Below are positions 25,867 through 46,542 of a stretch of DNA of 64,000 nt, one piece after another. Both the position numbers and the translations under genes were made by a program. Numbering within the stretch: position 1 is the stretch's first letter; the number at the start of each line of letters is the position of its first letter. Below the pieces are notes generated by a model. The model was given only the letters and a program-made list of their open reading frames with translations, had not been told where the DNA came from and did no database searches. This stretch comes from Calditrichia bacterium (lineage in GTDB: Bacteria > Calditrichota > Calditrichia > RBG-13-44-9 > J075): assembly GCA_965227145.1 (NCBI GenBank), contig OZ245730.1, positions 451,661-515,660 of the forward strand, in the 5' to 3' direction.

Positions 25867-25895
25867 GTAAAGAAAATTTATTCGGCTGAGGAAAA

Positions 25896-27143: not shown

Positions 27144-27169
27144 AAAACAAAACTCTTTTATCAGATTTA

Positions 27170-27775: not shown

Positions 27776-27854
27776 GGAGCAATCCTCCCCTGATTATCCA
27801 ATTTTATCCTGAATATTTTTTGCGTAATCGTTTACGCTTGATTACAATTTAAGT

Positions 27855-30696: not shown

Positions 30697-30712
30697 ATTT
30701 TTTTCCGAAAGT

Positions 30713-31180
30713 TTAGCTGAATTTTTGTTTGCCGGTGAGCATTTCGATCGCTTTGTTGATGCGCCGCTCCCGGGTTTCCGGGCGTTTGGCTTCGGTGATC
30801 CAGCGGATATATTCTTTGCGATGGGTGAAGGCGAGTCCGTCGAAAAATGCCTGCACTTCGGGATTTTCGTTTAGTTTTTTCCGGAAATCTTCCGGTACTT
30901 CAACCGTGCGCGGCTGGTCATCTTTTTGGATGGTGACGTGAACGGAATCGCCGGGCTGTTTGCCGATGGCCTTGCGCACTGCCTGGGTCATAATCAAAAA
31001 ATGGCAGTGGTGATCCATTTTTGCCAGCGATCCGCGATATTCGAAACCGTCGAAAATGGCGCGAACTTTTATCCACCCACGGGTGCCGAATTCTTTTTCA
31101 ACATCAAATGGGAACTCGATGAACGCCGCGTTCATCTGCCCGTGTCCGATAATTGTTGCATCAAAAGTGTAGGTTTTCAT
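30713..31180 (-). CDS. DUF1905/YdeI-like small protein
   Basis: 155-aa frame. Two-part architecture resembling DUF1905 plus a YdeI C-terminal region. Weak, from memory only. Confidence 0.4.
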   Translation of the reverse strand: MKTYTFDATIIGHGQMNAAFIEFPFDVEKEFGTRGWIKVRAIFDGFEYRGSLAKMDHHCHFLIMTQAVRKAIGKQPGDSVHVTIQKDDQPRTVEVPEDFRKKLNENPEVQAFFDGLAFTHRKEYIRWITEAKRPETRERRINKAIEMLTGKQKFS

Positions 31181-31325
31181 TTCAGAAATCCGTTTGTTTT
31201 TGCGGATTTTACCAATTTAGCGATAAAGTCGGGCGAATGCTCCAAAAAATTCAATTGTCCGCCGGGAATAAAAAAGCGCTCAAAAAGAGCGCCTAAATTG
31301 TAAATCTGCGGATGGTGCCGATCGC

Positions 31326-32324
31326 TTAAAACGCCAGCGTCACCCACACCGGAATGTGGTCCGAGGCAAAGCTGCCGCGCTCCTTATACACCAGTTTGTC
31401 ATCCACAAAACGGATGCTGCTGCGGCTGCCGCGCACCGCCGACGAACGGTTGAAAACACCCGATTCCTTCACATACGGCTTCAGGTTCATGGAAACGAGA
31501 ATGTTGTCCAGCAGGGTGATTTTCACGATCACATCTTTCATGTAATCGTGGGTTTTGCCGCGCCATTTGTTGTTTTCCGCACGGGAACCGGCTGCTGTCG
31601 GGTCGAATGTTTCCGTTTCGATGCTGTCCAGCAAAAAATTGTAGCCGTATGAGCCGTAGTCTTTTTCCAACAGCGATTCGGATGTGTTGAAGAAAAAAGT
31701 GTCCTCTGTTTTGTCGATGCCTGCGGGTGCGTCGGGATTGCCATATTCGAGAATATTGAGCGAACGGTCGTCCGGGTTATCGTTGAAATCGCCGAGAACA
31801 ATCACGTTTTTGCCGGCCATTTCCGCCGATTGCAGGTGCCGCAAAATCAGCTTCGATGCGCCGTTTCGCAACGGATCGTTCTTCTCCCGTCCGCCGCGAC
31901 GGGATTTGGCGTGATGCACCAGAAATACAAATTCCCGGTCGTAACCTTCGACGGTCACTTCAAGCAAATCGCGGCTGCGCGGAAATTCAAAATCATACAG
32001 CGTATCGGGAAAAACATATCGTTGCGAAACAATTTTGAACGGTTCGCGAACCAGTAGCGCCACTTCCTGCACTTCGCTGGTGTCGTCGATCATGGCGATT
32101 TGGTAAGTATCGCCAACAATATTTTGCAAAGCTGCCGGATTGTTGATTTCTTCGCAAGCGATCACATCTGCATCTAACTCTCGAATTACCGTTTGCAAAC
32201 TCGCTTTGCGTTCCGCAGAAATGCCGTCATCGAGAAAATAAATATTGTATGTGGCAATTTTCATGGTTTGACCGGCAGCAAACTGGAGCGCCAATATTAG
32301 CAAGAAAAAGGATATGCGTTTCAT
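31326..32324 (-). CDS. secreted endonuclease/exonuclease/phosphatase (EEP) family protein
   Basis: Signal peptide. EEP family motifs including the C-terminal SDHIPV. Confidence 0.6.
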   Translation of the reverse strand: MKRISFFLLILALQFAAGQTMKIATYNIYFLDDGISAERKASLQTVIRELDADVIACEEINNPAALQNIVGDTYQIAMIDDTSEVQEVALLVREPFKIVSQRYVFPDTLYDFEFPRSRDLLEVTVEGYDREFVFLVHHAKSRRGGREKNDPLRNGASKLILRHLQSAEMAGKNVIVLGDFNDNPDDRSLNILEYGNPDAPAGIDKTEDTFFFNTSESLLEKDYGSYGYNFLLDSIETETFDPTAAGSRAENNKWRGKTHDYMKDVIVKITLLDNILVSMNLKPYVKESGVFNRSSAVRGSRSSIRFVDDKLVYKERGSFASDHIPVWVTLAF

Positions 32325-32571
32325 TTTCAGCCCTTATTTTGTTCGCGAAAATATCCGAATTTTTCCCGACGAAACCAAGCTTCAAAACACTTTCCCGGCA
32401 TTGCGCTAAATGGAATCCGGGATTCTTTATTTTCATTAGAAACAACGGGTTGATAAAAAAATGTCATCAATTTTTGCGAAAAAAAACAGTGAGAAAAAAT
32501 AAGCTTGCCAGTTCCATTTTTCCGCGATATTTTCCAACCAAAAAAACGCAATTAACCGACGAACGAACCGC

Positions 32572-33774
32572 ATGTACCGAAACGTAAAACCATTTATTTC
32601 CCCGCGAAAACGCTTTTTCTTTTTGCCTTTTGCCTTTTTCTTTTTTCCTTTTGTCATTGCCGCACAGCCGCACGCGTTAACAGATAGCGCGACGATTTCG
32701 CTGATCACGGTTTCGCCGGGAAACGAGCTGTATACCACGTTTGGGCACAGTGCTTTTCGGGTGGTCGATAAATCCCAAAATCTCGACCGGATTTATAATT
32801 ACGGCACCTTCAATTTCGACGAACCGGGATTTTATCTCAATTTTTGCCGTGGGAAACTGGATTATTTGTTATCCGCGTATCGTTACAAATGGGCGGAAGA
32901 AACCTACATCGATGAGCAGCGCTCAATTTTTCAGCAACAGCTGAACGTGACGCCTGAGATGCGGGATTATCTGTTCCAGTTTTTGGAGTGGAATCATTTG
33001 CCGGAAAACCGGCGCTATCGATATGATTTCTTTTTTGACAACTGCGCAACGCGCATTCGCGATGTTTTTGAACGAACACTCGGCGACGATGTGCGGCTTT
33101 ATGAAAATCCCGATCGCCATATGACGTTTCGGGAATACATCGATTTGTATCTGACCGGATTACCCTTCAGCGATTACGGTATCGATCTGGCTTTGGGCGC
33201 GAAAACGGATAATCCGGCGTCGGCTCATGAAGCGATGTTTTTACCGGATTATTTGTTCGAAGCCGTTGAAAACGGAGAAATACGGGTTAACGGTGAGTGG
33301 CAACCTTTGGTGGCGCAGTTCGATACGTTATTCTGGACGGAAATTTCCGAGCAACCAAAAACCGCGTTGCCGTGGATGACCATTATTTTGTGGCTGGTTT
33401 TTGCTTTTGCCGGATGGGCGACTTTTCGGGCGTATCAGGAAAAACAATCACCAAAAATCAGCAGAATCGATTATGGTTTATTTGCTTTAAACGGATTAAT
33501 GGGGCTGGTAATGTTGCTGCTTTGGTTTGCCACCGATCATACCACAACGGTAAATAACTGGAATCTGATCTGGGCGTGGCCGACAAATCTGATTGTTGCC
33601 GGATTGTTTTTTGTGCCAAATATGCGGGAACAGTTACGGGTCTATTTTATGGTTTTTGCTGGTGTTCTGGTTTTGTCGCTGGCGGGTTGGGCTTTTCTGC
33701 CGCAGGATTTACATGAGGCAAACATCCCGTTTATTTTGGCGTTGGTGTTGCGTTGTTGGTGGTTAAGCCGATGA
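32572..33774 (+). CDS. DUF4105 (Lnb-like N-terminal domain) membrane protein
   Basis: N-terminal anchor, then a periplasmic domain with GNELYTTFGHSAFRV… followed by 4-5 C-terminal hydrophobic helices. Confidence 0.5.
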   Translation: MYRNVKPFISPRKRFFFLPFAFFFFPFVIAAQPHALTDSATISLITVSPGNELYTTFGHSAFRVVDKSQNLDRIYNYGTFNFDEPGFYLNFCRGKLDYLLSAYRYKWAEETYIDEQRSIFQQQLNVTPEMRDYLFQFLEWNHLPENRRYRYDFFFDNCATRIRDVFERTLGDDVRLYENPDRHMTFREYIDLYLTGLPFSDYGIDLALGAKTDNPASAHEAMFLPDYLFEAVENGEIRVNGEWQPLVAQFDTLFWTEISEQPKTALPWMTIILWLVFAFAGWATFRAYQEKQSPKISRIDYGLFALNGLMGLVMLLLWFATDHTTTVNNWNLIWAWPTNLIVAGLFFVPNMREQLRVYFMVFAGVLVLSLAGWAFLPQDLHEANIPFILALVLRCWWLSR

Positions 33775-33884
33775 TCGATCTGGCCAACGCGCAAGACATT
33801 GTTGATGATGGACAGTCGCTTTTCAATTTTTCGGTTGTAAAGCCACTATCCTGACGCTAAATTTGCCTCGCCAAAAAAACAGAT

Positions 33885-33966
33885 GCCCGGGTGGTGGAAT
33901 TGGCAGACACGCATGACTTAGGATCATGTGCCGAAAGGCGTGGAGGTTCGAGTCCTCTCCCGGGTA
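33885..33966 (+). tRNA. tRNA-Leu (anticodon TAG)
   Basis: Acceptor stem GCCCGGG/CCCGGGT with a G1-U72 wobble. D-arm GGTGGAATTGG. Anticodon stem CATGA/TCATG with loop cTTAGga. Long variable arm GCCGAAAGGCGTG. T-arm GGAGG-TTCGAGT-CCTCT. Discriminator A. CCA is not encoded. Confidence 0.85.
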
Positions 33967-34193
33967 CTGAATAAAAACAACTACTTACAGACACACCTGA
34001 CTTTACAGAATTTCTCTTGCTCCAAACTTGCTCTATTTGCGTTTTAAGAAAAAGCCCCTTGTAGAGGCTAATCTGGTGGTCGCCAAGATTAATTGCCGTA
34101 ATTGGCTGCGCTCGTTCAAGGGGCAAAATGTATAATTAATCCTGGCGACCGGCTTCAATATACAAACCTGCCTTCCGTTTTACTATACCCACT

Positions 34194-35417
34194 TTACCGG
34201 TACATAGTTATGATTTTCGGCGTGGCTGTGAGATAGGTTTCGGTCGTGACCTTCAGGTCGGTATGCCCGAGGATCTGCGAAAGGGCATACACATCCCCGC
34301 GGCGGTTCTCCAGAAAGTTGACCGCGAAAGTATGCCGGAGGCTGTGGATCGAAACGTTCTCCTGGAGATGGCACTTCATTTTGGCTACCCGGAAAAATTC
34401 GTTGACGCTGTTCCGGGAGCTGATCTCGAAAAACAGGTATCCGTCGAAGGCGCGCCGGCGCCAGGATTCGGCGTTTTTGTTTCCGGAGTCAAACAGCAGC
34501 TCGTTCAGCTTTTGGGGATCGCTCATAATCGCCCGGCGGCGTTCAATGATTTCCATAACATCGTTCACCGGCACCCAGCGGGCCTTTTCCTTGAACTTCC
34601 GGGAGCCCTTGCCAATCACCCTCAGGAAGTGCCGGGTTTCGCCGTCGATATCGTTGGTCCGGAGGCGGTTGATGTTCACGTCCAGTATCTCGCTTCTGCG
34701 GAGCCCGGTTTTTAGCCCGAACTCAAAAAAGTCGAGATGCCAGGAAACCTCGCTTTTTTCCAGATACCGGCGGATTTTTTGGATTTCGCTTTCCTCCAGA
34801 TACCTGGGCGAGGTATCCACGTTGAGCAGCGGAAAGCCGATAAACGGGTTGACAGGTATCAACCCGAGTTTTCTGGCATGGCTGAACGCCGAGCGCAAGG
34901 TGCGCAGGTGGACGTTGATCGATGTTGGCTTATAGGGCTTGCCGAATTTGGTGGTGGAGCCAAGCAGGGTATCAATAAAGTGCTGGACGGCGTTCCGGCT
35001 GATTTCCGAAAGCAGGCGCTGCTCCCCAAAAACGGTGATGAGCAGCTTGGTGCTTTGGTTGTCCGTGTCGAATGTGTTCTGGGAAATGTTGCCTCGCTCG
35101 ATTTCCTTTTCCCGGTGGTCCAAGTAGAGCCTGCGGAACTTGCCGAGCGTCATTTTATTCAGATGCGGCAGGTATTCCTTTAGGTTGAAGGACTCCAGCG
35201 CCACCTCGCCCTGGATTTTCCGGAGCGCCTTTTCTGCGACGGCTAGCGCCTTACGGGTGTCGGTTCGGAGGTCAACGTGCTTAATTGTAATGCTTTTGGT
35301 GGAGCCGTCTTGAAATGTAATGAGAATATACGGGCGCTTTCTGCCGGTCCACGGCAGGCTTGCCAGAACCTGCTCCGGCGATGGCTTCAGCTGGACATAG
35401 CGAATCCGGTTATTCAT
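34194..35417 (-). CDS. int: tyrosine-type site-specific integrase
   Basis: C-terminal catalytic motifs (HSLRHTFAV…LGHTDLKVTTETYL). 407 aa. Lies adjacent to the tRNA. Confidence 0.85.
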   Translation of the reverse strand: MNNRIRYVQLKPSPEQVLASLPWTGRKRPYILITFQDGSTKSITIKHVDLRTDTRKALAVAEKALRKIQGEVALESFNLKEYLPHLNKMTLGKFRRLYLDHREKEIERGNISQNTFDTDNQSTKLLITVFGEQRLLSEISRNAVQHFIDTLLGSTTKFGKPYKPTSINVHLRTLRSAFSHARKLGLIPVNPFIGFPLLNVDTSPRYLEESEIQKIRRYLEKSEVSWHLDFFEFGLKTGLRRSEILDVNINRLRTNDIDGETRHFLRVIGKGSRKFKEKARWVPVNDVMEIIERRRAIMSDPQKLNELLFDSGNKNAESWRRRAFDGYLFFEISSRNSVNEFFRVAKMKCHLQENVSIHSLRHTFAVNFLENRRGDVYALSQILGHTDLKVTTETYLTATPKIITMYR

Positions 35418-35438
35418 TGGTCAGCCCTCTCATGCATT

Positions 35439-35696
35439 TCAATGATCGTTATTCTTAACTTCAGTAATACGAACTTTTTTTCCGCGAATCAATACCAATT
35501 TGATTGTTTCGCCGGCGTTGGTTCTGCCCGTGATGGTCGTGTAGTGCTTTTTCTCCTTGTCCTTTGGATCGATAATGACGGAAATGATGACCTCGGGCGA
35601 GTAGTCCTCAATTGCGTCGATGAATTTTTTGAGTTTTTTTCCGGTGGGAGCCGGTAGCTGCTTTTGCAGAAGCTGCAATACTTCCTTGACGTACAA
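35439..35696 (-). CDS. small hypothetical protein between integrase and umuD-like gene
   Basis: 85-aa basic ORF, 21 nt upstream of integrase on the same strand. No motif recognised. Confidence 0.3.
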   Translation of the reverse strand: MYVKEVLQLLQKQLPAPTGKKLKKFIDAIEDYSPEVIISVIIDPKDKEKKHYTTITGRTNAGETIKLVLIRGKKVRITEVKNNDH

Positions 35697-35873
35697 TTCG
35701 CCTACCTCCTTATATAGGAATGGATGTATGTATTACTAGCCTCGATTGAACCCGAACAAAAATAAATTACCCGAAATAAAAATGCAACAACTTTTTAGTG
35801 AACTTTTATATACTATTTTTCTTGACATATGTCACTCCAGTTTTTACTTTTGCCCTGAGAGAAAAACAACAAT

Positions 35874-36293
35874 ATGGAGGTTACTTTGAAGATCGTAACA
35901 GCAACCCAGCAGCAAGTCAAGTTTATTTTGGCGCCGGCAATGGCCGGCTTTCCATCGCCGGCGGATGACTATCTGGAGGGCAGCCTGGATCTGACCCAGC
36001 TGATGATTTACCACCCGGCCGAAACCTACCTGTTCAATGTCAAGGGTAACTCGATGGTAGATGCGCATATTGACGACGGGGACATGCTTTTAGTGGACCG
36101 GGCGATTAAGCCCCAGAACGGGGATCTGGTTCTGGCGAAGCTAGACGGCTGTTTTCTTGTTAAAAAGTATTTCAACAAGGGCAGCTATGTTGTCCTGGCG
36201 TCATGCAATAAGGACTACGAGCCCATCCGGATTGAGGAGGGGCGGGAGTTTGAGGTGTTTGGGAAGGTAATATTTGCGATACGGCCTAGGTAA
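35874..36293 (+). CDS. UmuD-like S24 peptidase domain protein (no HTH, no adjacent umuC)
   Basis: 139 aa. The protein carries the GFPSPADDY cleavage-site region, the Ser nucleophile in GNSM and the Lys in LVKKYF. It is colinear with UmuD/LexA C-domains. Confidence 0.75.
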   Translation: MEVTLKIVTATQQQVKFILAPAMAGFPSPADDYLEGSLDLTQLMIYHPAETYLFNVKGNSMVDAHIDDGDMLLVDRAIKPQNGDLVLAKLDGCFLVKKYFNKGSYVVLASCNKDYEPIRIEEGREFEVFGKVIFAIRPR

Positions 36294-36466
36294 GTGCAAA
36301 GCTTAAAGACCGGTGAGAAAATTTGAGAAATCGATTTACGACTTGTCTGAATCACCTCTTGTTCAATGGTGTGCCAAAGGGTGAGGTCGAAGTCGTTTGC
36401 AGAAAACAACACCATTCGATTCCCGGCAAGAGTTCCCGAATTAAATCACGGATCAATAAATAAATA

Positions 36467-37138
36467 TTAACTATTAAATATCTGATTAAAATTATAGAAG
36501 CAAGTCGGTTCGCTATTGTTCTTATTGTACTGCTTAAATTTCTTTGTGAGATTTGAAATAGCAATATACTTTGACATACTGTCACAGGTCTTTGATTTTC
36601 TTGCTTTTTGTAAAATTTTTAGTTGCACATCTTCAATTGAAATTAGACCAACTCCATTATTTTTCAAGATTTGGAGATCAACATTTTTAACATATCTTGA
36701 ATGTATTGCAAGGTAAGAATAGTCCGAAAAGTAACTATACCTAAGTGCTTGGTAAAAGCCCCCCCGCCAATCTTTAACTTTTACTTCTACCGAAGAAAGA
36801 GAGGGTAACTTTGAAAAATCTATATAATAATTAATAAAAATCGAGTTGTTGTTTACTATTAATAAATTTTTGCTAATTAGTTCTTTGACTATGTTGTCTG
36901 TTTTTCTTTTTGCTAACTTAGATTGGCTGTAAAGGTCATAAGTGTTTTCAATGCGATTTTCAACAATTGCGTTATATATTTTCAAGGTATAATAATCGTT
37001 GATATATGGGCTGTTGACTTTTTTATCCAAGAAAGCGATATCCGGAATTCCTATACCCATCCTAACCTCATTGGCATAGACAACTTTGCAACGTTCCAGA
37101 ACGTTATTAAATGTTGCGACTAGCTCATTTTCTTTCAT
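36467..37138 (-). CDS. hypothetical protein, possible PD-(D/E)xK-type nuclease, co-operonic with kinase fusion
   Basis: Starts 3 nt after the kinase stop on the same strand and is AT-rich. Candidate motifs GIGIPDIAF…VEVKVK…QALRY (hPD…ExK…QxxxY), but the spacing is atypical. Confidence 0.5.
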   Translation of the reverse strand: MKENELVATFNNVLERCKVVYANEVRMGIGIPDIAFLDKKVNSPYINDYYTLKIYNAIVENRIENTYDLYSQSKLAKRKTDNIVKELISKNLLIVNNNSIFINYYIDFSKLPSLSSVEVKVKDWRGGFYQALRYSYFSDYSYLAIHSRYVKNVDLQILKNNGVGLISIEDVQLKILQKARKSKTCDSMSKYIAISNLTKKFKQYNKNNSEPTCFYNFNQIFNS

Positions 37139-37140
37139 TA

Positions 37141-39198
37141 CTATATACCATAAAGTTTTCTTAGTTTTTCAATTACTAACTGCCAGTTATTCAAAAATTG
37201 ATAACTTTCAGGCTTAAATATAGCCTTAAGAGCCTTGTAATAATTTAAACTTTCGACTATATCGTTATTGAGTTTATCCAATCTTTCTGTCGTTGTTTTT
37301 TGTAACAATATATCAATTTCATTTTGGATACGATACAAAAAGTGCTTTTTGGTGTTTTTGTCAATAATTATGTCTTCAGGTGGTTTTCCCTTGCAATAGG
37401 GACAATTGCAGGCCAAGTTTTTTCCAGTGGCTCCTGCGAGAATTGCAAAAAGTTTTGATGGGTCTTTTCGATTAATAGGGACATTCGCAAAAAGCTCAGG
37501 TATATAATATCTAACAAATAAATTATATGAATCTGTTCTGTCTTTGTATAAATCCTCATAAAAACTTTCAAATCTTGCGCTACCAGACTCAAAGCCATGG
37601 ATTCCAAATGCAAGTAGTAACAAGCCAATTAAGCCTACTCTACCGGCAATGACTGGTTTACCAGAAGAAACTTGTAATGTTCTGAGTGTCTGAATGAAGT
37701 GGTATAGCTCTGAAGTTGATGATTGATGATTTATGCAATCGACATAAATAAGATAGCCGTCACATGGGAGACCAGTTAAAATGTTAATAAAATATTCTTT
37801 TTCAACCTTACTTGTTAATATCTCTGAACGAATTGAAAAACCTGCGATTAGAGGAATTGAAATATTGTTTTCATCTAGATACATCCTAGTTTGTTTTATT
37901 AGGCGATAATCGACATTAAACCAGTTTAGCTGCCTATCGTGTTTTATTGTTATGTGTTCAGAATTATTACTTACGTGAAAGGGGCTGACTAAATAAGTGG
38001 GATCATGTTCCAGTTGAGTATCAATAACGCTTTTTATATATTGGTATCTTTTTGTGTCATCATCTAAGTCAGATAACTCGATTTTTGAATAATTACTAGG
38101 CGCATAAGGTAGTTGTGTTAAACCTTTTACATCTGAAAAAGTATCATATGCTAAACGCATTGTTGCAGGGTCAAACATTAAATTTATTTTGGGGTTTTGT
38201 AGAATTTTTAGCAAATTTTTTTGTTGATATTGATGGTTGATCGGGAAAATAGCATTTTTTATTTTATACCCGTCATTGAGGTACTCAGTTAATACTTGCT
38301 TCTCGTTCCAAGTTCTCAAATAAAGCCCTGGTTCAAAGTAATTACGATTATGCTTTGGTAGTTGGTTATTTGTGATATTAAAGTATTTTTTTATATCAGA
38401 TATCGAATTTGGTCGATTATGTACAGTTTTTTCAAGAAGATGATAAATCAACTTTTCATAGGACGCATCTAAATCTGGTCGATATAATAATATAGAATCC
38501 GGCCTATTATTTAGAATTCTATAAAATAATTCAGGAAGTGAGGTTGCTCTCCCATAGGGACTTACTTTAGTAAGAATTTCAAAGTATAACACTCCTAAGG
38601 AATAATAATCAGAACGGTAATCTATATTTTTTGAATCATTTATTTGTTCTGGTGACATATACAGTGGGCTACCAATTTGGCTTCCTGTGCTGGTTAGCGA
38701 GGAATAATCAATAAGCTTTGAAAGCCCAAAGTCGAGAAGTTTTATTTCACCTGCGTTTGTTAAGTAGATATTCTCAGGCTTTAAGTCCCTATGAATTATT
38801 CCCTTAGAGTGTATTGCATTTAATCCTTCTAGTATTTGAAAAAAGATGTCCTTTTCATTAATTTGTCGATTATTCCTTATTATATCACGGATATCTGAGC
38901 CCTCAAGGAATTCCATCACGACATAGATATAAATTTGTGAATTTTCTATTAATTCTCCACTCTCAATGTATTTGATCACATTTGGGTGATCGATTCTTGT
39001 TAAGGTTTCAATCTCTCTTGAAATACGGTTATTCGCCCCTCGTGTAAATTCCTCATAAACATATTCTCTATTAAATATTTTAATGGCATAGGTTTTAGAA
39101 GTAGTATCCCTAATGCATTTATAGACTGATCCAAATGCACCTTTTCCAATAAAAGAGGATATTGAATAGCATCCAATTTTTTTTCCTAACATTACCAT
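37141..39198 (-). CDS. Hanks-type Ser/Thr protein kinase fused to a C-terminal tRNA-guanine-transglycosylase(TGT)/DpdA-like domain
   Basis: Kinase subdomains: GKGAFGSVYKC (G-loop), YAIKIF (VAIK), HRDLKPENIYL (catalytic loop), DFGLSK (DFG), GSPLYMSPE (APE). The ~400-aa C-terminal domain contains LMFDPATM (cf. TGT DSGGYQ), GKPVIAGRVG…GIHGFES (cf. TGT KPxYLMGVG…GIDMFD) and a Zn-type CNCPYC (CxCxxC) followed by HFLYRIQNEI (cf. TGT His and HNL helix). Confidence 0.7.
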   Translation of the reverse strand: MVMLGKKIGCYSISSFIGKGAFGSVYKCIRDTTSKTYAIKIFNREYVYEEFTRGANNRISREIETLTRIDHPNVIKYIESGELIENSQIYIYVVMEFLEGSDIRDIIRNNRQINEKDIFFQILEGLNAIHSKGIIHRDLKPENIYLTNAGEIKLLDFGLSKLIDYSSLTSTGSQIGSPLYMSPEQINDSKNIDYRSDYYSLGVLYFEILTKVSPYGRATSLPELFYRILNNRPDSILLYRPDLDASYEKLIYHLLEKTVHNRPNSISDIKKYFNITNNQLPKHNRNYFEPGLYLRTWNEKQVLTEYLNDGYKIKNAIFPINHQYQQKNLLKILQNPKINLMFDPATMRLAYDTFSDVKGLTQLPYAPSNYSKIELSDLDDDTKRYQYIKSVIDTQLEHDPTYLVSPFHVSNNSEHITIKHDRQLNWFNVDYRLIKQTRMYLDENNISIPLIAGFSIRSEILTSKVEKEYFINILTGLPCDGYLIYVDCINHQSSTSELYHFIQTLRTLQVSSGKPVIAGRVGLIGLLLLAFGIHGFESGSARFESFYEDLYKDRTDSYNLFVRYYIPELFANVPINRKDPSKLFAILAGATGKNLACNCPYCKGKPPEDIIIDKNTKKHFLYRIQNEIDILLQKTTTERLDKLNNDIVESLNYYKALKAIFKPESYQFLNNWQLVIEKLRKLYGI

Positions 39199-39369
39199 CC
39201 CTTTCCTTTAAAGAAGTCGTTACACATATTTTTAATACTACTGAAAAAATTTAAGTTCTTCGAAAGATCCTCATAAGTATTAAATGTTTGGAGTTTTTAG
39301 AATTAGATAAAAAACAAAGCTTAACAAGAATAATTCTTTGGGTTATTAAAAGTTAAATAAAAGAGGATT

Positions 39370-40365
39370 TCAGTCCTGCCAGGCAGTCAGAACTCCATTC
39401 TCAAAGTAAACATAAGTGCGATAATAAACCCACTGCTCATGAACTCCCCACGATCCAACCGACCTGTTAATATCACGAGGATCACCCCAGCTTGCACGTA
39501 CCATTTCCCTGCTCATTCCAATATAAATTTCTCCATTTAAGATTTGATTTTTTCTAGAACGTGATAATTTTGGATTGTCTCTAACGAATTTTTGTCTTCT
39601 TAAATCACTTTCAGAAATTAAAGCCACTTCACGATAGCTTACAAGATCCTTGCTTATCCAAGCATCTGTATACTTTTGTTTTAACTGTTTAAGGGTAGAC
39701 GGGGTAGTGTTATTATTTTTAATACGAATCTTAATCCAGCTTCCCGCTTCAAGATTTTTATAAACAATTTCTCCTTGCCTAAGAGTTGATACAATTTTGC
39801 CACCAGTTGATGATGTATCTCGTACATTGGCAGTTAGTGAGCTAATCCATAACGGTGTTGATTCATACTCAATGTCAAGTTTTTTGGCATTAGTGCTCTC
39901 GGCTTTTCGGTCTATTGAGCTTTTAAATGTGCCCTCATTATTAACATGAAAGCTTAACTCTCGTTTGATAGATGCAAGTTCATTTTGTAGTTTTGTAAAT
40001 GAGGATATGTCTGGTGAGTCTTTAATGAATGATTCAAAAATAAAACCCTTTTTACCTTGAAACTCAACAAAGGCATACTTTTGTGATTCATGTCTGTTTT
40101 CAATAAAACGAAATAAATGGATTTCATCTCCGGAACTAATTTTAGCAATTTTTTTTGAACTACGTGATCCTTCTCTGAATAAACTCGCGCCATATACCAG
40201 CTTGACGGTTAGCCCTTCATTATTGATCCTATTAATTTGTGTTTCTAATTTTTTTTCAAGAAGTGTTAAGCTATCAAGTTTAGCCACATATAAGCGATTT
40301 GCTACGTCGGAGTACTGCGCATGGCAAATCAGGCTAACAAATAACAATAATATCGTAATTCTCAT
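39370..40365 (-). CDS. secreted protein with C-terminal BamE/SmpA_OmlA-like domain
   Basis: Signal peptide MRITILLLFVSLICHAQ. C-terminus GMSREMVRASWGDPRDINRSVGSWGVHEQWVYY…NGVLTAWQD resembles the BamE fold signature. AT-rich. Confidence 0.5.
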   Translation of the reverse strand: MRITILLLFVSLICHAQYSDVANRLYVAKLDSLTLLEKKLETQINRINNEGLTVKLVYGASLFREGSRSSKKIAKISSGDEIHLFRFIENRHESQKYAFVEFQGKKGFIFESFIKDSPDISSFTKLQNELASIKRELSFHVNNEGTFKSSIDRKAESTNAKKLDIEYESTPLWISSLTANVRDTSSTGGKIVSTLRQGEIVYKNLEAGSWIKIRIKNNNTTPSTLKQLKQKYTDAWISKDLVSYREVALISESDLRRQKFVRDNPKLSRSRKNQILNGEIYIGMSREMVRASWGDPRDINRSVGSWGVHEQWVYYRTYVYFENGVLTAWQD

Positions 40366-40418
40366 CTTTTCCCTCGCCGAATGACAAAAAATTAGATATT
40401 TATTTATTTCAAAAGTCC

Positions 40419-40862
40419 TTATCTCCCCAAAAACTTCTCAATCTCCTTCCGGTCCGGATCGGTGATGCTGCCGAGCTGGGTCAGCTTTGCCTTCGTCTCG
40501 AAGATGACCTCCTCGCACTGCTGCAGAGCTTCCGGGCTTACGGCGTTGGATTCCTCCGCGTCCATGTGAAATCCCAGCATAAAGTTCAGAAAGTTGTTCA
40601 GGATGTGCTGGCTTGACCTAACGGACGCCAGAAACACCTCCCTTTTTTCCTGCTCCTTTTTCGCCATCTGCTCAAAATGGTGCTTGATAAGTATATATAG
40701 CATCGCAGTAGTTGCGACGACAAAAAGCCACCCCTTGAACGTTTGGGCTACGGTAACAAGATCAAGGGTTTTAAATAAAAGAGCTACGGCTTTATCTGAA
40801 AGCAAAATCCATATAGTGCCAATCATGAAATAGATCAGCGGGATTTTAAGCTGAGGCTTCAT
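40419..40862 (-). CDS. small membrane protein (2 TM helices + helical C-terminal domain)
   Basis: Hydrophobic helices IYFMIGTIWILL and WLFVVATTAMLYILI. 147 aa. Confidence 0.4.
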   Translation of the reverse strand: MKPQLKIPLIYFMIGTIWILLSDKAVALLFKTLDLVTVAQTFKGWLFVVATTAMLYILIKHHFEQMAKKEQEKREVFLASVRSSQHILNNFLNFMLGFHMDAEESNAVSPEALQQCEEVIFETKAKLTQLGSITDPDRKEIEKFLGR

Positions 40863-40973
40863 TAACAGTTACTCCGATTTGTGGTTTCATAGATCACAGC
40901 ACAGATGGGTAGCTGAATGTAGCCAGTTTTTATATCGAAAGAAATCCGCGATTACGGAGCTTTGGAGTGATTT

Positions 40974-41011
40974 TCTCTGTAATTACGGAGAGCTTCTCTG
41001 TAATTACGGAG
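40974..41011. repeat. direct repeats TCTCTGTAATTACGGAG x2 (21-bp phasing) plus third ATTACGGAG copy at 40951
   Basis: 17-bp units at 40974-40990 and 40995-41011. Core ATTACGGAG also at 40951-40959. They lie between the membrane-protein gene and the cI-like gene. Confidence 0.6.
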
Positions 41012-41047
41012 GGCAATATGTCAAAATACAGAGGCGCAAACGGCCTT

Positions 41048-41440
41048 TTAGTCGAGGTCGTCTACCATCCCCTTTAAAAATTCCAGAATGCTTTCCCGCT
41101 TTTTTTCGGGCATCCGCATGAGCAGGTCGTAGATTTCTTTCATGTCCGGGCGGAGTTCGTTTTGGGGTATTGGCTTTGATTTCTCAAAGTATACCAAATC
41201 GCCATCCTCAATAATTTCACGATTAAACGCCTCAGCTATTGACCTTACAGTTGCTTCCTGAACGTTTTGCGTTTCGCCAATGATGATTTTTCTTAGTCCT
41301 GGGTAAGACATGCCTACTCGTTTTGCCATTTCGGGAATTGACAAACGCTCCTCTTTTCGAAGCTCCTCTATGGCCTCCCTGATGTTCGAGTATCGCATAT
41401 CAAAATATAGCACTTGTCTAATCCTTTGTAAATGAAACAC
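41048..41440 (-). CDS. XRE/cI-like HTH transcriptional regulator (prophage repressor candidate)
   Basis: HTH segment IPEMAKRVGMSYPGLRKIIIGE. Divergently oriented from the rightward early genes, with an operator-like palindrome in the intergenic region. Confidence 0.6.
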   Translation of the reverse strand: MFHLQRIRQVLYFDMRYSNIREAIEELRKEERLSIPEMAKRVGMSYPGLRKIIIGETQNVQEATVRSIAEAFNREIIEDGDLVYFEKSKPIPQNELRPDMKEIYDLLMRMPEKKRESILEFLKGMVDDLD

Positions 41441-41476
41441 TTATAAACTTTTATAAATTTTTATAAAAAAATATTG

Positions 41477-41531
41477 CCTCGTTAGTTTATAGAAGTTATA
41501 TTATTTCCGTTACTTTTATAAACTAACGAGG
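41477..41531. promoter_or_regulatory. perfect 15-bp inverted repeat (CCTCGTTAGTTTATA / TATAAACTAACGAGG) with 25-bp spacer in divergent promoter region; candidate operator
   Basis: Arms at 41477-41491 and 41517-41531 are exact reverse complements. AT-rich TTATAAA direct repeats lie at 41441-41470. Confidence 0.55.
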
Positions 41532-41536
41532 ACAAC

Positions 41537-41773
41537 ATGGATCGAACATCAATTTCCGTTTTCAAACCAACCAAGGAAAAATTTGACCAGGCACGGCGGA
41601 AGTATCCCAAATACACAGCCAACGATGACGAGTTTTTGTCTTGCCTGCTTCATCTGTTTGATGATGCTGAAAATTCCATTTTCGAGGGTTCGGAAAACGC
41701 GGAAGCGCCATCCCTGTTGAGCAAAGATAATAACATTTCAAATTTTCAACAAGCCACAAAAGAAAGCGCATAA
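41537..41773 (+). CDS. small acidic hypothetical protein (early rightward gene)
   Basis: 78-aa ORF immediately downstream of the operator region. Confidence 0.35.
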   Translation: MDRTSISVFKPTKEKFDQARRKYPKYTANDDEFLSCLLHLFDDAENSIFEGSENAEAPSLLSKDNNISNFQQATKESA

Positions 41774-41783
41774 GGAGCGTGTT

Positions 41784-42122
41784 ATGCCAAAGCCAATTAA
41801 CCCATTTGATGTGCGGGAGCTGGTCCGGAAGGGGCATGTGCTTCCGCTGCTGCTGAACCAGCAGAATACCGCGGCTTTTATCGGCGTTTCGGAATCGCTG
41901 CTGAAGGTCTGGATTCAGGACGGCGTGTTTCCCGTCCGCCCGTTCAAAAACGGCTGGTACCGGCGAATTGACGTGGAAACCTACATCAACCAGCCTATTG
42001 AAAAAACGGACGACGAGCTGGTTGATGAGATATACTCAGATTTTCAAGCCGAGATGGGATCACACCACAGAAAGGAGGGCAGAGATTTTGGCGCGGCGGG
42101 CTCAAACGCTCTGAACGGCTGA
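41784..42122 (+). CDS. AlpA/excisionase-like HTH DNA-binding protein
   Basis: Segment LLNQQNTAAFIGVSESLLKVWIQDGVFPVRPF resembles MerR/AlpA-type excisionase HTHs. Confidence 0.45.
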   Translation: MPKPINPFDVRELVRKGHVLPLLLNQQNTAAFIGVSESLLKVWIQDGVFPVRPFKNGWYRRIDVETYINQPIEKTDDELVDEIYSDFQAEMGSHHRKEGRDFGAAGSNALNG

Positions 42123-42211
42123 CAGGCTTGCCGTACTTCGAAGGACGGGCGGCGGGCTCCTTGGGTTGAGGCGCCGCCCAAATTTTAACACCACAAAAGG
42201 GAAGGCAGATC

Positions 42212-42541
42212 ATGAAACGGACTTTTAAATCGCTCAAAAAAATCATTGACCGGCTGAAGCTTCGCCTGCGGCTGCTAACGGTTGCGACGGTTTGCAAGTG
42301 GCACGATAGCGTAACGCCGCCCATCAATATGCGTTCTGCCCTGCTGTTCTGGGTTTACTACAAAACCGGCAGGCTGGACGCATTTCACATTTCCGGGGGG
42401 ATTTGCCCGGCATGCGCTGCAAAGGTGCGGCAGTCTGCAGCGCTTCCGCAGCGGGCCGGCAGGTTCGAACGCGGGACTTTTTTCGACCGGTTAATGAGAA
42501 AATTCTTCAAAGGAGGTGAATCGAATGCTAACGCCAGTTGA
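42212..42541 (+). CDS. hypothetical protein
   Basis: 109-aa ORF with contains a Cys pair (ICPACAAK); no family recognised. Confidence 0.3.
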   Translation: MKRTFKSLKKIIDRLKLRLRLLTVATVCKWHDSVTPPINMRSALLFWVYYKTGRLDAFHISGGICPACAAKVRQSAALPQRAGRFERGTFFDRLMRKFFKGGESNANAS

Positions 42542-42824
42542 AGCAGCAAGCCTGGATCGCTGGATCACTACCCGCCCGGACGATACGAAAAGCAACTCTG
42601 CCGGCTGCGAATGCTGCAGCGGGCCGTTTGACCCGGACGCCGAGGGCGTGGTTGCATGGGAAAAGGGGCGCGAAATCGTGGTTGCGGTTTGCGAAAGCTG
42701 CGTTCCGGAGATGTTCTCAAGGTATGCAAAAGTAGTTGAAAGCTGCCTCGCCGGGCATCCGTACGACCGGAAGGAGCTGGGGAAGGCTAACCGGTTTATC
42801 CGGCAGATGTTGTCAGAAATGTAA
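42516..42824 (+). CDS. Cys-rich (CxC…CxxC) hypothetical protein
   Basis: CECCSGPFDP…VCESCVPEM suggests a zinc ribbon. Confidence 0.35.
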   Translation: MNRMLTPVEAASLDRWITTRPDDTKSNSAGCECCSGPFDPDAEGVVAWEKGREIVVAVCESCVPEMFSRYAKVVESCLAGHPYDRKELGKANRFIRQMLSEM

Positions 42825-42913
42825 AACCCCACGATGAGCAGATCGCGGGGCTATTATCGGGTTGTGAGTAAATCATTGCACTCACCCACACCAAAAAATT
42901 AAGGAGAAAATCG

Positions 42914-44224
42914 ATGGCAAACAATGCCTTTTTTCAGGAGCTCGAAAATACCCGCCCGTTTTTTAAGGCGGCGTTCGAAGGATTTAGCGGAACGGGAAAA
43001 TCGTTCACGGCCGGCGTGATCGCCTGCGGGCTGCACGATATGATCAAAAGCAAAAAGCCGATCGCGCTGTACTACACCGAGCGCGCCGGCAAGGGCGCGA
43101 TGGCTAACTTCTACAGCCAGCGCAAAAAGAAGGCAATCATTAAGGAATCGCGGACGCTGGCGGACCTGCTGACGACCATCAACCTGTGCGAGCAGGGCCA
43201 CGCGGATATCCTGGTGATCGATTCCATTTCCCATATTTGGGAAAGCTTTGTCCAGGCGTATATGCGCCAGAAAAACCGGAAAAAGCTTTACTTCCAGGAC
43301 TGGGGCGTTTTGAAGCCGGACTGGAAAGAGAAGTTTTCCGACCGCTTCCTGGAGGCGCAGGTGCATATCATTTTCACCGGGCGCGCCGGCTACGAGTACG
43401 ACTTTGTGGAAAACTCCGACGGCGAAAAAGAGCTTGCAAAGACCGGCATCAAAATGCGGGTCGAGGGCGAGACAGAGTACGAGCCGGACATGGTCGTGCT
43501 GATGGAAAAGGTAAAGGAAATGAACGGCAACGTCATGAGCCTAAAGCGCCGGGCGCTGGTCGTTAAAGACCGCACCAACCTGATCGACGGCAAAAGCTTT
43601 TTCAACCCTTCCTTTGAGGACTTCAAGCCAGCCATCAACATCTTGCTCGCCGGCAGCGCGGTGGCGGATAACTTCGATGAAACGCCGGACGATTTTGAGT
43701 CCGACGATACCTACGAAAACCGCAAAAAGCAACGCACCATTCTGCTTGAGGAAGTGAAGGGCATTTTTGACCAGCTGGAGCTGGGGCAGAGCGCCACGGC
43801 AAAGGCGTTCAAGGCCGATCTGGCGGAAAAAGTTTTTGGCAGCCGGAGCTGGACAGCTATCGAAGAGCTCGATCTCAAGCTGCTGGAAAAGGGCAAAACC
43901 CTCCTCGATACCTACAAAGCCTGGTTTGTTGAATATTTCCGCGGGCGCAAGTCCCAGGGCTTGGACCTGAACAAAGAGGATGCCCTCGCGGCGCTGGAAA
44001 AGATCATCAGCCCGCCGGCAGAAACCCCGGCAGACGAGTGGCTGGCGGAAGCCGAAAAGCCGAAAGCCCCCCGGGCCTCAGCGCCCAAAAAGCAGGCGCC
44101 GGACGAGCTGCCCGGATTCGATACCGAGCCGCAGTCCTTCGGCGATGCTCAGGAACCGTCCTTCGGCGGTGCTCAGGAGCCAGCCGGCGCAGCCATCAGC
44201 AACGGGCAAACGGATCTGTTTTAA
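42914..44224 (+). CDS. phage RecA-like/AAA_24-type ATPase (Sak4-like) with Pro/Ala/Glu-rich C-terminal extension
   Basis: P-loop FEGFSGTGKSFTA; Walker B-like ILVIDSISHIW. Sits within the replication/recombination module. Confidence 0.55.
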   Translation: MANNAFFQELENTRPFFKAAFEGFSGTGKSFTAGVIACGLHDMIKSKKPIALYYTERAGKGAMANFYSQRKKKAIIKESRTLADLLTTINLCEQGHADILVIDSISHIWESFVQAYMRQKNRKKLYFQDWGVLKPDWKEKFSDRFLEAQVHIIFTGRAGYEYDFVENSDGEKELAKTGIKMRVEGETEYEPDMVVLMEKVKEMNGNVMSLKRRALVVKDRTNLIDGKSFFNPSFEDFKPAINILLAGSAVADNFDETPDDFESDDTYENRKKQRTILLEEVKGIFDQLELGQSATAKAFKADLAEKVFGSRSWTAIEELDLKLLEKGKTLLDTYKAWFVEYFRGRKSQGLDLNKEDALAALEKIISPPAETPADEWLAEAEKPKAPRASAPKKQAPDELPGFDTEPQSFGDAQEPSFGGAQEPAGAAISNGQTDLF

Positions 44225-44359
44225 TGGAACCGTCCATCGACTTCGCTCAGGAACCGCCCCGTTGGGAATATTTGACAAAGGAACAGTTTCTCAAGCTGCT
44301 GGCGCGCGTCCGGCAGCTTGAGGCTGAAAACAGCAAACTTCGAATGAGAGGCAAGATCA

Positions 44360-46183
44360 ATGCAATTATCATCCATAAAGCTGACCAACTTCTTGAACCA
44401 CTCCGAAGCGGCAGTGGACTTCAACAAAGTGAACATTTTCTCCGGGCACAACGGCGCCGGAAAAACGGCCATCCTGCAGGCGATCCTGTTCGCGCTGACC
44501 GGGATCAGCCGGCGTGACCCGGTCCAGTGGGGCGCGAGATCCTGCGCCGTGAACCTCGTTTCAAACGACTTAGAGATCACCCGAAAGGAAACCCGATCCG
44601 GCAGCAAGGAGCTTTCGCTCTGGAAAAAGGGCGGGGACTTTGAAGGGACGATCACCGAAAAGCAAAGCCAGCTGATGCGGCTGTTTGGCATGACGGAAAC
44701 CCAGGTCGAGGCGGTTCTGGAAACCGGGCGGTTCCTGGAGCTGAAGGACGACGACCGGAAGGACGTGATTTTCCGGGCGCTGGATATCCGGGTAACGGCG
44801 GAGCACCTGCTGGGCTGGCTGGGCAAGCAGCAGCCGGATATCGACTGGAATAAAATTGTTGGCCGCGAAATAGAAAGCGGGCTGAATCCGGATGCGGACA
44901 ACCAGAAGGTTTTTGTCGAGCGGCGCCGGGCGGCCAAGCGCCGGCTGTCTGACCTTTCCGCGGAAATGGATCGCTTCCTGCAGCTGCCCAACGTGGATAT
45001 CCGCCGGAAGCATAACGCCCAGGCGCTGCTGGCTGATCTGGAAAAGAATCTCGCGGAGCTGCACCAGCGCAAGGGCGAGGCAAGCCACCTGCCCCGGATA
45101 ACCGTGGAGTTTGAGGCGGTCAAGTCCGAGCTGAATAAGCCGGACAACTCCGACCGGATCCGCGGGCTGACCTACGACGCCGAAGTCCTGCAGGAGCAGC
45201 TGGACGGGCTGAACGCGGAAAAGGAAACGCTGCTGGAAAAGGTTTCGACCGAACGCGGGACGATTGCCGGCATCGGCGCCTTTCAGGATTTGGGCGATAG
45301 CTGCGACCGCTGCGGGCAAAGGGTCACCAAAACCCTTGCGAAACGGCTGGCGTCCGAGCACAGCAAGCGGGTGAAGCTGCACGAATCCCTGCTGAAGGAT
45401 GCGACCGGCAAGCTTGCGGAAGTGAATAAGGAAGCCGGCGAAATATCGAATAAAATTGGCGCGCTTAAAAAGGAAATCCGCGATCTGGAATCCGGCAACT
45501 ATAAGGGCGACCGCAAAACGCTCGAAAGGCGTTACGACGAGCTGCTGGCGGAAAAAAAGCGGCTTTCGGAAATCGTGGTGACGCCCGCGGAAATTGATGC
45601 GTTGGAGCTACGAATCAGCAACGGTCGGAACCTGCTGGCCAATATTGAGCTGGTGGAACAGTCCGAAAAGCGCAAGGCGGAGATCGAGGAAGCGGTTGCC
45701 GAAACGCAGCTGGAAATTGAGGCGTCCGACTGGCTGGAAAAGGCGTTCTCGCCCAAAGGCGTGAAGGCGGATCTGCTTCGCAGCGCCATCGCACAGGTGG
45801 AGGATCTCGCCAACGAATTCCTGAGCCCGCTGGGCTTTGGCGAGTTCCGGATCCAGACAACCGACGGCTCGCGCGAGGTCTTTCGGGTGATGGTCGGCGA
45901 AAAGCCTGATGTATCGTTCAGCCGGGCGCAGCGCCACGCCATTAACTTCGTGATACAGGCGGTGCTCTCCCAGCTGACCGGGCTGAAAATTCTGGCGGTG
46001 GACGACGTGGACATGTTCGTGGGCGATACCAAAAGCCTGGTCAACCGGATCATTTTTAACAACATCGCCAAGTTTGATACAGTCCTGATTTTTAAGGCGG
46101 ACGCCGAAAAGCCCAAGCCGGTGCCGGTGGACGGCGTTTCCCAGTTTTGGCTGAACGGCAAGCTGGAGGAGGTAAAGGCGTAA
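44360..46183 (+). CDS. SbcC/Rad50-like SMC-family ATPase
   Basis: N-terminal Walker A (IFSGHNGAGKTAILQAILFALTG), long coiled-coil middle, C-terminal D-loop and Walker B (LKILAVDDVDMF). Confidence 0.65.
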   Translation: MQLSSIKLTNFLNHSEAAVDFNKVNIFSGHNGAGKTAILQAILFALTGISRRDPVQWGARSCAVNLVSNDLEITRKETRSGSKELSLWKKGGDFEGTITEKQSQLMRLFGMTETQVEAVLETGRFLELKDDDRKDVIFRALDIRVTAEHLLGWLGKQQPDIDWNKIVGREIESGLNPDADNQKVFVERRRAAKRRLSDLSAEMDRFLQLPNVDIRRKHNAQALLADLEKNLAELHQRKGEASHLPRITVEFEAVKSELNKPDNSDRIRGLTYDAEVLQEQLDGLNAEKETLLEKVSTERGTIAGIGAFQDLGDSCDRCGQRVTKTLAKRLASEHSKRVKLHESLLKDATGKLAEVNKEAGEISNKIGALKKEIRDLESGNYKGDRKTLERRYDELLAEKKRLSEIVVTPAEIDALELRISNGRNLLANIELVEQSEKRKAEIEEAVAETQLEIEASDWLEKAFSPKGVKADLLRSAIAQVEDLANEFLSPLGFGEFRIQTTDGSREVFRVMVGEKPDVSFSRAQRHAINFVIQAVLSQLTGLKILAVDDVDMFVGDTKSLVNRIIFNNIAKFDTVLIFKADAEKPKPVPVDGVSQFWLNGKLEEVKA

Positions 46184-46542
46184 TGAAAATTACATTCAAC
46201 CAGCACAACGAATTTATTGAAGAGCTGAAAAGGGACAGCCTGTTTATTGATCGAAAGATTGTCCGGGTGACCCGCCAATTCCGGCGCGCCGGCGGCGGGC
46301 TTCCCTTTACCGAGGCAAGCATTCTCGCCTCATATTCAATCCGGGTTAACCCTCAATCTGGTAACGACCACAGCCGCCAGGTTATCTCGTTGAATAATTA
46401 TTGCGGCCGGTACATGCTGGAAGATCCGCACGAGGAGAAGGTGCTGAAGCTTGCGGACGAAATTCAAGGCGAGATCGAGGCCGCCGCAAAAAAGCTGAAC
46501 ATGGAAATTCGCGCTGGGTATATCGAGGACGGAGGTGAGTGA
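46183..46542 (+). CDS. hypothetical protein
   Basis: The ATG overlaps the sbcC-like stop (TAATG); 119-aa frame. Confidence 0.4.
   Translation: MKITFNQHNEFIEELKRDSLFIDRKIVRVTRQFRRAGGGLPFTEASILASYSIRVNPQSGNDHSRQVISLNNYCGRYMLEDPHEEKVLKLADEIQGEIEAAAKKLNMEIRAGYIEDGGE

Follow-up and report, generated by a model that had tools for sequence, protein, structure and literature searches.

Eukaryotic-like Ser/Thr kinases of the Hanks type act in the defence systems PD-T4-6, MADS and BREX type 2, Stk2 is another defence-associated member of the group, and RecB/Cas4-like nucleases combine a PD-(D/E)xK core with a QxxxY motif. The tRNA-guanine transglycosylase (TGT) fold has also been drawn into genome conflict: marking of DNA by a TGT is an established feature of Dpd and has been put forward for BRC systems, which carry a TGT homologue (PMC12839542), and Cap10 of type IV CBASS has a remodelled version of the fold, which binds a protein with a 7-deazaguanine conjugate attached (10.1101/2025.04.06.647259). 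Here we describe a cassette in a prophage of a Calditrichia bacterium (contig OZ245730.1, positions 451,661 to 515,660; this stretch of 64,000 nucleotides is referred to below as the window, and positions are numbered within it) in which a 685-amino-acid (aa) protein joins a Hanks-type kinase to a predicted TGT-fold domain and is followed directly by the gene for a 223-aa predicted PD-(D/E)xK nuclease. We lean towards the view that this cassette is a mobile defence module of two genes, spread horizontally and directed against phages or plasmids. We infer this role because the synteny of the two genes is strict, their relatives lie among defence and mobile-element genes, the cargo is swapped in a sister prophage, the kinase and nuclease motifs are intact, and the TGT family offers precedents in DpdA, Cap10 and BRC. 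In the literature we searched there was no description of a kinase, a TGT fold and a nuclease in combination, although a very recent naming is possible.

The kinase domain scores 184.7 bits against the Pfam Pkinase cut-off of 31.7, as the sequence-only reading of this DNA, made before any database search, had proposed. Its motifs (GKGAFG, K40 in AIK, D138 in HRDLKPEN, D156 in DFG, and SPE) accompany an activation loop rich in Ser and Thr, and 39-40 of 40 family members keep them intact; judged by these residues, the 685-aa protein belongs to the Hanks-type (eukaryotic-like) Ser/Thr kinases and looks active. The PADLOC models for PD-T4-6 and mad6 match the protein with E-values of 1e-60 to 1e-64, over approximately residues 3-280 only; the longer PD-T4-6 profiles align through no more than their first ~270 positions, and in NCBIfam the protein reaches 150.5 bits for MAD6 against a cut-off of 460 and 49.6 bits for PglW against a cut-off of 990. 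We considered membership of PD-T4-6, MAD6 and PglW and rejected it, because the match is confined to the kinase domain and the MAD6 and PglW scores lie under the NCBIfam cut-offs. The PD-T4-6 label is in any case not diagnostic, since the same models also call the PASTA-type housekeeping Ser/Thr kinase of every Streptococcus thermophilus genome (PMC11514479).

The remainder of the protein is far more elusive at the level of sequence. Residues 286-685 found no match in Pfam, NCBIfam, PHROGs, PADLOC v2 or PDB sequences; ten family members submitted to Pfam gave no hit to its TGT family, which we take to be PF01702; phmmer and hmmsearch of the PDB with the TGT-like domain were non-significant; and hhalign against Escherichia coli Tgt returned a probability of 0.7%. 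An AlphaFold2 model built from 41 sequences (predicted local distance difference test, pLDDT, 84; predicted template modelling score, pTM, 0.87) has the alternating strand and helix pattern of a barrel, and Foldseek against the PDB ranked TGT first. The zinc-binding residues that are a hallmark of the TGT family, C597, C599, C602 and H619, are invariant in the 41 kinase-fused members and in two distant relatives, one from Bacilli (locus L005) and one from a Priestia plasmid (L006); in the broad family, C312, C317 and H334 reach a conservation of 90% or more, and the only PDB sequence that the broad-family profile drew at E<=10 was ArcTGT, aligned through the zinc motif (E 0.4, non-significant alone). 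Barrel and zinc site are thus those of the TGT superfamily, while sequence profiles give no such match, and we conclude from the predicted model that residues 286-685 form a highly divergent TGT-superfamily domain at the level of the fold, claiming no sequence-level membership. Residues were mapped onto Tgt from strand order and motif shape only: D343, near-invariant across the whole family, may correspond to Tgt D89, F-H408 to F-D143 with its base-recognition Asp, and F-E537-S to the nucleophile motif F-D264-C. An acidic residue at position 544 (E or D, in GExF) is widely kept across the family.

The 223-aa partner likewise has no match in Pfam, NCBIfam, PHROGs or PADLOC v2. Across 40 diverse homologues, E24, G28, D33, E118-x-K120, W124 and Q130-A-x-x-Y134 are invariant, and in the predicted model (pLDDT 90.8) these residues sit on the alpha-beta-beta-beta-alpha-beta core of the PD-(D/E)xK superfamily, supplying its D...(D/E)xK motif together with the E and QxxxY elements. 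Between the D strand and the ExK strand, at about residues 49-102, a winged helix is inserted. The model thus points to a PD-(D/E)xK nuclease with complete catalytic motifs and a putative DNA-binding winged helix-turn-helix (wHTH) insert.

What binds these two proteins into one system is their conserved pairing. Loci came from exact look-up, from a scan of metagenomes that yielded 42 loci and from a tblastn search of plasmids, and all open reading frames (ORFs) in them were scored with hidden Markov models (HMMs) of both proteins; a locus was evaluable when it was non-redundant, its gene was intact and the DNA continued for at least 400 nt downstream. The partner was adjacent in all 35 evaluable loci, co-oriented with small gaps or overlaps in 34 of them and convergent in the remaining one, a Priestia megaterium plasmid, and the pairing persists where the TGT-like domains share as little as 25-31% identity (L005 and L006). 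The sequence-only reading had taken the downstream gene for a partner and left its synteny elsewhere to be checked; the check bears it out. It had also placed the partner 3 nt after the kinase stop; the gene does follow directly, and the junction reads TAG-TA-ATG, a spacer of 2 nt, which suggests that the fusion gene and the partner gene are translationally coupled. A search with the C-terminal domain returned 358 clusters at the 90% level, almost all of them kinase fusions of ~683 aa with 50-57% identity, and the named sources were Bacillota (Syntrophomonas, Oscillibacter, Lachnobacterium, Acidaminococcaceae).

The wider family is modular. With phmmer, the TGT-like domain found 174 clusters (50% identity) among 1.84 billion representatives; ~28 of the 150 listed are kinase fusions, and many others are stand-alone proteins of 380-435 aa that keep the motifs IxDPxT, LPY, GFxSG and CxCxxC...HFL and belong to no Pfam or PADLOC family. 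In three loci (L056, L059 and L061) a TGT-like gene is followed by an overlapping PIN_3 gene and then by a convergent partner homologue (HMM E 1e-34 to 1e-40), with no kinase present, and on the finished plasmid 3 of Arthrobacter sp. FB24 a Ser/Thr kinase (270 aa) and a TGT-like protein (457 aa) have separate genes, the partner gene being convergent. A further locus (L060) has a layout like that of Arthrobacter, with 10 Ns at the junction of kinase and TGT-like genes; on account of these Ns we rejected it as proof of a split kinase and relied on the finished plasmid. Because the kinase may be fused, split or, in some loci with a PIN gene, absent, the conserved core is the TGT-fold protein with its PD-(D/E)xK-wHTH nuclease. 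Such alternation between a fused or split kinase and, in kinase-less loci, a PIN domain is a pattern typical of conflict systems. We also note one metagenomic locus (L047:1-3579) in which the kinase-TGT gene is split by a 453-aa ORF (1206-2567), probably an insertion-sequence disruption.

In the prophage, the cassette is exchangeable cargo, with the integrase on one side of it and the immunity region on the other. A second Calditrichia genome (Calditrichia_J042, L062) is 99.1% identical to positions 24194-35819 of the window and 98.3% identical to positions 40424-46305 (blastn), and at the intervening variable segment, which in the window comprises the S24 peptidase gene and three low-GC genes, it carries an unrelated 3.7 kb (L062:5883-9598; GC 0.376). 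As the cargo is swapped within prophages that are otherwise 98-99% identical, the kinase-TGT cassette, the S24 peptidase gene and the gene of an SH3 protein considered below are all accessory and exchangeable; no flanking direct repeats delimiting the cassette were found. The counterpart cargo encodes 376-aa and 142-aa proteins without a family and a 626-aa hybrid HisKA/HATPase/response-regulator protein, matches PADLOC models only weakly and is possibly another uncharacterised accessory or defence module. Composition tells the same story: positions 36300-40400 have a GC content of 0.329, the 1-kb windows elsewhere average 0.492 (sd 0.059), and all twelve 1-kb windows within the block lie at or below 0.343. 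GC at third codon positions (GC3) is 0.28, 0.26 and 0.32 in the three genes of the block, against 0.63-0.79 in the integrase, S24 peptidase and prophage genes and 0.57 in host genes. The picture drawn from the letters alone, of a block with about 30% GC between flanks of about 50%, holding three co-oriented minus-strand genes as cargo in a prophage hotspot between an integrase/UmuD region and an immunity region, is therefore sound, and the block is horizontally acquired (Table 1).

The third of these genes does not belong to the system. Its 331-aa product has an N-terminus resembling a signal peptide and a borderline SH3_3 domain (E 1.8e-6), so that of the initial description, a secreted BamE-like protein, the first half is kept and the likeness to BamE found no confirmation. 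The protein has no PDB sequence match, no homologue in ~60 related loci, and forms a one-member cluster in a collection of 15 billion proteins. A three-gene system, as first envisaged, was accordingly rejected in favour of one of two genes, because the SH3 protein has no homologue in the other loci; it is a secreted or lipoprotein-like, low-GC co-resident cargo outside the conserved system.

Table 1. Features of the cassette, its flanks and two related loci (positions refer to the window unless a locus is named).
Feature	Position	Strand	Basis or remark
tRNA-Leu	33885-33967		Flank of element
Tyrosine integrase	34194-35417		Library match
Variable cargo segment	35820-40423		Both sides alignable to L062, interior not (blastn)
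S24/UmuD-like peptidase	35874-36293	+	Library match
223-aa partner gene	36467-37138	-	ORF call
685-aa kinase and TGT-fold fusion gene	37141-39198	-	ORF call
TGT-fold (beta/alpha)8 domain (predicted), residues 286-685	37144-38343	-	Conserved D343 (IDPxT), H408 (PFH), E537 (GFESG), E544 (GExF)
Zinc-binding motif, C597-x-C599-x-x-C602...H619	37342-37410	-	TGT-family hallmark
Kinase domain, residues 11-264	38407-39168	-	Pfam Pkinase E 2.8e-54
AT-rich intergenic region upstream of kinase gene	39199-39369	-	Presumed to hold the promoter of the two-gene operon
331-aa protein gene	39370-40365	-	ORF call
HTH (helix-turn-helix) repressor-like gene	41048-41440		Library match
Kinase-less 433-aa TGT-like copy, then partner	L009:7944-9955		Right after large serine recombinase gene
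Kinase-less 433-aa TGT-like copy, then partner	L010:1606-3617		Right after large serine recombinase gene

Around the cassette, the prophage backbone includes Sak4-like and SbcC-like genes, a helicase, a replication initiator, a methyltransferase with an endonuclease, a large terminase and a portal. The methyltransferase gene (52502-53443) overlaps that of a PHROG "restriction endonuclease II" protein (53440-54054, E 8e-76), and the two form a probable phage-borne type II restriction-modification system. The product of the prophage gene at 51459-52370 falls into PHROG family phrog_335, "phosphatase" (E 5e-37); as the element also carries a Ser/Thr kinase among its cargo, a protein phosphatase encoded by the phage could matter for function. 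Just beyond the cassette, positions 40419-40862 encode a 147-aa membrane protein that is kept in both prophages, resembles the phosphodiesterase DibA at its N-terminus (NCBIfam E 3.8e-9) and has no homologue in any other related locus. Between this gene and the HTH repressor-like gene lies a tandem direct repeat of 21 nt, TTCTCTGTAATTACGGAGAGC, in two copies (40973-41014), which may be an operator. A scan for promoters and terminators returned no more sites than shuffled sequence did.

Elsewhere, the pair keeps the company expected of defence cargo. The Syntrophomonas locus lies in a region that looks like an ICE (integrative and conjugative element), with TraG, a topoisomerase and a methylase; L003 adjoins the Wadjet genes JetABC; in L011-L013 the pair has a Fic gene on one side and, on the other, a type III restriction-modification system accompanied by Abi_C and DpnI, with a prophage repressor and Bro-N/ANT genes next to them; ParAB and serine recombinases flank L008-L010; and RES-Xre and PemK toxin-antitoxin genes stand beside the pair in some loci. 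Among 107 further neighbour proteins the commonest are type IIG restriction-modification enzymes (Eco57I/MmeI), AbiEii/AbiEi, N6 methylases, resolvases or recombinases and insertion-sequence elements, and immediate neighbours elsewhere include GmrSD, AAA_15/DUF3696 and an ABC-3C component. Type IIG genes of the Eco57I/MmeI kind lie directly upstream in four loci (L030:1-2844, L033:2-1381, L041:417-4058 and L050:1269-4073), and in two of these no more than 3 nt separate them from the kinase-TGT gene, a hint that the genes are at times transcribed together or cooperate in function. As a separate observation, the Priestia plasmid (L006:3151-4762) carries a YolD-like gene and a "damage repair protein"/Y-family polymerase gene, whose counterpart in the window is the UmuD-like S24 peptidase; the occurrence of translesion-synthesis-type neighbours in two unrelated elements may be a coincidence among mobile-element cargo.

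Several observations weigh against the proposal of a defence module built on a TGT fold. The TGT assignment rests on a predicted model, profile methods being non-significant, and the Foldseek E-values for TGT lie near those for other TIM barrels. The putative nucleophile E537 is invariant in the main clade only and varies in distant and stand-alone relatives, and for this reason catalysis by the TGT-fold domain is uncertain. Some stand-alone TGT-like homologues, among them those of L057 (66% GC), of L064 and of a Clavibacter plasmid, have no detectable partner. The kinase-less 433-aa copies of L009 and L010, which may have been cut short where an element ends or may be a working core of two genes, occur in at least 19 contigs, and since they persist so widely, the pair can at least be retained without the kinase. 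Searches for phage-borne relatives came back empty, both by tblastn against 50,697 phage genomes and by scanning viral contigs (IMG/VR) for the pattern of the C-terminal alignment, so that the association with phages rests on the Calditrichia prophage and L011-L013. Finally, the defence-island context is a qualitative one, drawn from ~30 loci, and not a genome-wide enrichment statistic.

If the cassette does protect its host, we envisage that the TGT-fold domain would engage nucleic acid in the manner of TGT, flipping out a base, and would thereby recognise invader DNA or RNA or mark it by base excision or exchange. This event would control the fused kinase by way of autophosphorylation of its conserved S/T-rich activation loop; the kinase would in turn phosphorylate the partner, host and phage proteins, or both, and the translationally coupled nuclease would cut DNA, leading to restriction of the invader or to abortive infection. 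The role in defence is inferred, and so are what the TGT-fold domain binds, the sequence in which events unfold and the proteins that the kinase phosphorylates; these last particulars are put forward less firmly than the role itself. More tentatively, and with doubt prevailing, we raise the possibility that the cassette represents a new class of immune system, in which a divergent TGT-fold enzyme performs chemistry genuinely new for this fold in immunity. Base excision or exchange on invader nucleic acid would then leave a lesion or mark to be cut by the PD-(D/E)xK-wHTH nuclease or, alternatively and by analogy with Cap10, the enzyme would act on a protein-nucleobase conjugate, and the link from this chemistry to abortive infection would be an interchangeable module, either a Ser/Thr kinase (fused or split) or a PIN RNase.

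Among the explanations that compete with a defence module of this kind, the one that survives best, unlikely as we consider it, is restriction-modification in the manner of Dpd. Here the TGT-fold transglycosylase would mark the host's own DNA, for example by replacing guanine with 7-deazaguanine, the nuclease would restrict unmodified DNA, and the kinase would assume the ATP-dependent or regulatory role of DpdB. A conserved pair of modifier and nuclease is the classic restriction-modification layout, the TGT-like protein and its partner stay together without the kinase, and TGT-based marking of DNA is established for Dpd and proposed for BRC (PMC12839542). Yet genes for DpdB, DpdC and 7-deazaguanine synthesis (queC/D/E/F) were absent from the top 25 families of the 107 neighbour proteins, from the annotated loci and from the window; there is no sequence-level similarity to TGT or DpdA; on the mapping proposed above, His408 would stand in place of the base-recognition Asp and the family varies at the nucleophile position; and mobility across phyla would be awkward for a system in need of a host precursor and genome-wide pre-modification. 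The absence of those genes, the missing sequence-level signal and the variable nucleophile position also bear on the initial label "TGT/DpdA-like": its TGT fold stands, while its likeness to DpdA claims too close a link.

An addiction module akin to toxin-antitoxin systems, in which the nuclease (or the kinase, or PIN) would be a toxin curbed by the TGT-fold protein and would serve to maintain the plasmid, ICE or prophage, strikes us as quite improbable. It would account for the constant presence of the pair on or beside mobile elements, for the ParA/ParB genes in L008-L010 and the RES-Xre and PemK toxin-antitoxin genes adjoining some loci, for the tight, translationally coupled layout of two genes, and for PIN, a typical toxin domain of toxin-antitoxin systems. 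Typical toxin-antitoxin pairs, however, are much smaller and simpler than these proteins, the kinase, zinc-site and nuclease motifs are all strongly conserved, and the commonest neighbours are restriction-modification, Abi and Wadjet genes; moreover, many defence systems show addiction behaviour, so that this explanation overlaps with a defence role.

More improbable again, in our judgement, is a function outside defence, such as cargo signalling or nucleic-acid modification by a kinase-controlled tRNA- or DNA-modifying enzyme, or a part in the response to DNA damage. TGT enzymes are primarily tRNA modifiers, the adjacent UmuD-like S24 peptidase and the YolD and Y-family polymerase genes of the Priestia plasmid would suit a damage function, and the hybrid histidine kinase in the sister prophage is likewise signalling cargo. 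The obligatory nuclease partner and the PIN domain of kinase-less loci fit conflict systems better, and the patchy distribution across phyla on mobile elements, the foreign GC signature and the predominance of defence genes among the neighbours also speak against it. That the gene is a plain single-gene defence kinase of the PD-T4-6 (or Mad6) type with an unrelated gene downstream, as the strong PADLOC matches would probably lead automated annotation to report, is very improbable, given that those matches span the generic kinase domain, that the MAD6 score is far below its cut-off, that the same label falls on the S. thermophilus PASTA-type kinase (PMC11514479), that no PADLOC model is matched by the TGT-fold domain of 400 aa or by the partner, and that the partner is always adjacent in evaluable loci and stands beside the TGT-like protein even without a kinase.

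Should the defence reading prove right, the cassette would be a widespread, compact and mobile system of two genes, with ~360 fused clusters (90%) and 174 TGT-like clusters (50%), the hosts named among the matches including Bacillota, Actinomycetota and Calditrichota. It would join a eukaryotic-like kinase, a TGT fold invisible to annotation and a dedicated nuclease, never before reported together, and would offer a tractable model for the control of a bacterial Ser/Thr kinase by a domain that senses or modifies nucleic acid. A new immune class, were it borne out, would mean that immunity employs the TGT fold in a third way, with a mechanism of its own, and would link nucleobase chemistry directly to phospho-signalling. 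On the practical side, automated tools would mislabel the kinase-TGT gene "PD-T4-6" and miss both the core and the partner.

Set against the systems with which we began, the cassette satisfies the description of the general superfamilies (Hanks-type kinase, TGT fold, PD-(D/E)xK nuclease) and departs from Dpd, type IV CBASS, PD-T4-6 and Mad6/PglW. The sequence-only reading knew of no described system with this combination of genes, and the comparison agrees with it: neither the TGT-like domain nor the partner matches a PADLOC v2, Pfam or NCBIfam model, and in PADLOC only the kinase domain is matched, generically. Next to RecB/Cas4-like nucleases and SPO1766 (PDB 3dnx), the partner is distinguished by the winged helix between its D and ExK strands, by the lack of an iron-sulfur cluster or helicase association, and by its place outside every Pfam, NCBIfam and PADLOC family. 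PD-T4-6, MADS Mad6, BREX PglW and Stk2 share with the cassette a eukaryotic-like Ser/Thr kinase domain and a defence-island context; unlike it, they have no TGT-fold domain and no such nuclease partner, and PD-T4-6 is a single gene.

The systems that use a TGT fold come closer in concept than in content. Dpd, like the cassette, employs a TGT-fold protein in genome conflict and co-encodes a nuclease on mobile DNA; it is a cluster of 11 genes or larger, whereas the cassette has two, its DpdA has no detectable sequence similarity to the TGT-fold domain described here, and the cassette is without neighbouring genes for a DpdB ATPase, for DpdC or for preQ0 synthesis, carries its TGT-fold domain fused to a Ser/Thr kinase, and differs or varies at the putative base-binding and nucleophile residues. 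Neither the window cassette nor the related loci contain a CD-NTase or QueC-like gene, and we rejected membership of both Dpd and type IV CBASS because the companion genes they require were not found in the window or related loci. In contrast with CBASS, the cassette lacks Cap9/QueC and Cap effector genes, its partner is predicted to be a PD-(D/E)xK nuclease, and its kinase fusion has no equivalent there; Cap10 nonetheless shows that a TGT fold can bind or act on a protein partner instead of tRNA (10.1101/2025.04.06.647259). BRC systems are built on HerA/FtsK, PglZ, a BrxC-like ATPase and STAND proteins, none of which occurs in the cassette, and they have neither a kinase fusion nor a PD-(D/E)xK-wHTH partner, but they too have recruited a TGT homologue into a multi-component defence locus (PMC12839542). 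If it does act in defence, the two-gene cassette would extend an emerging theme in which folds of the queuosine pathway, as in DpdA, Cap10 and QatC, are repurposed for immunity.

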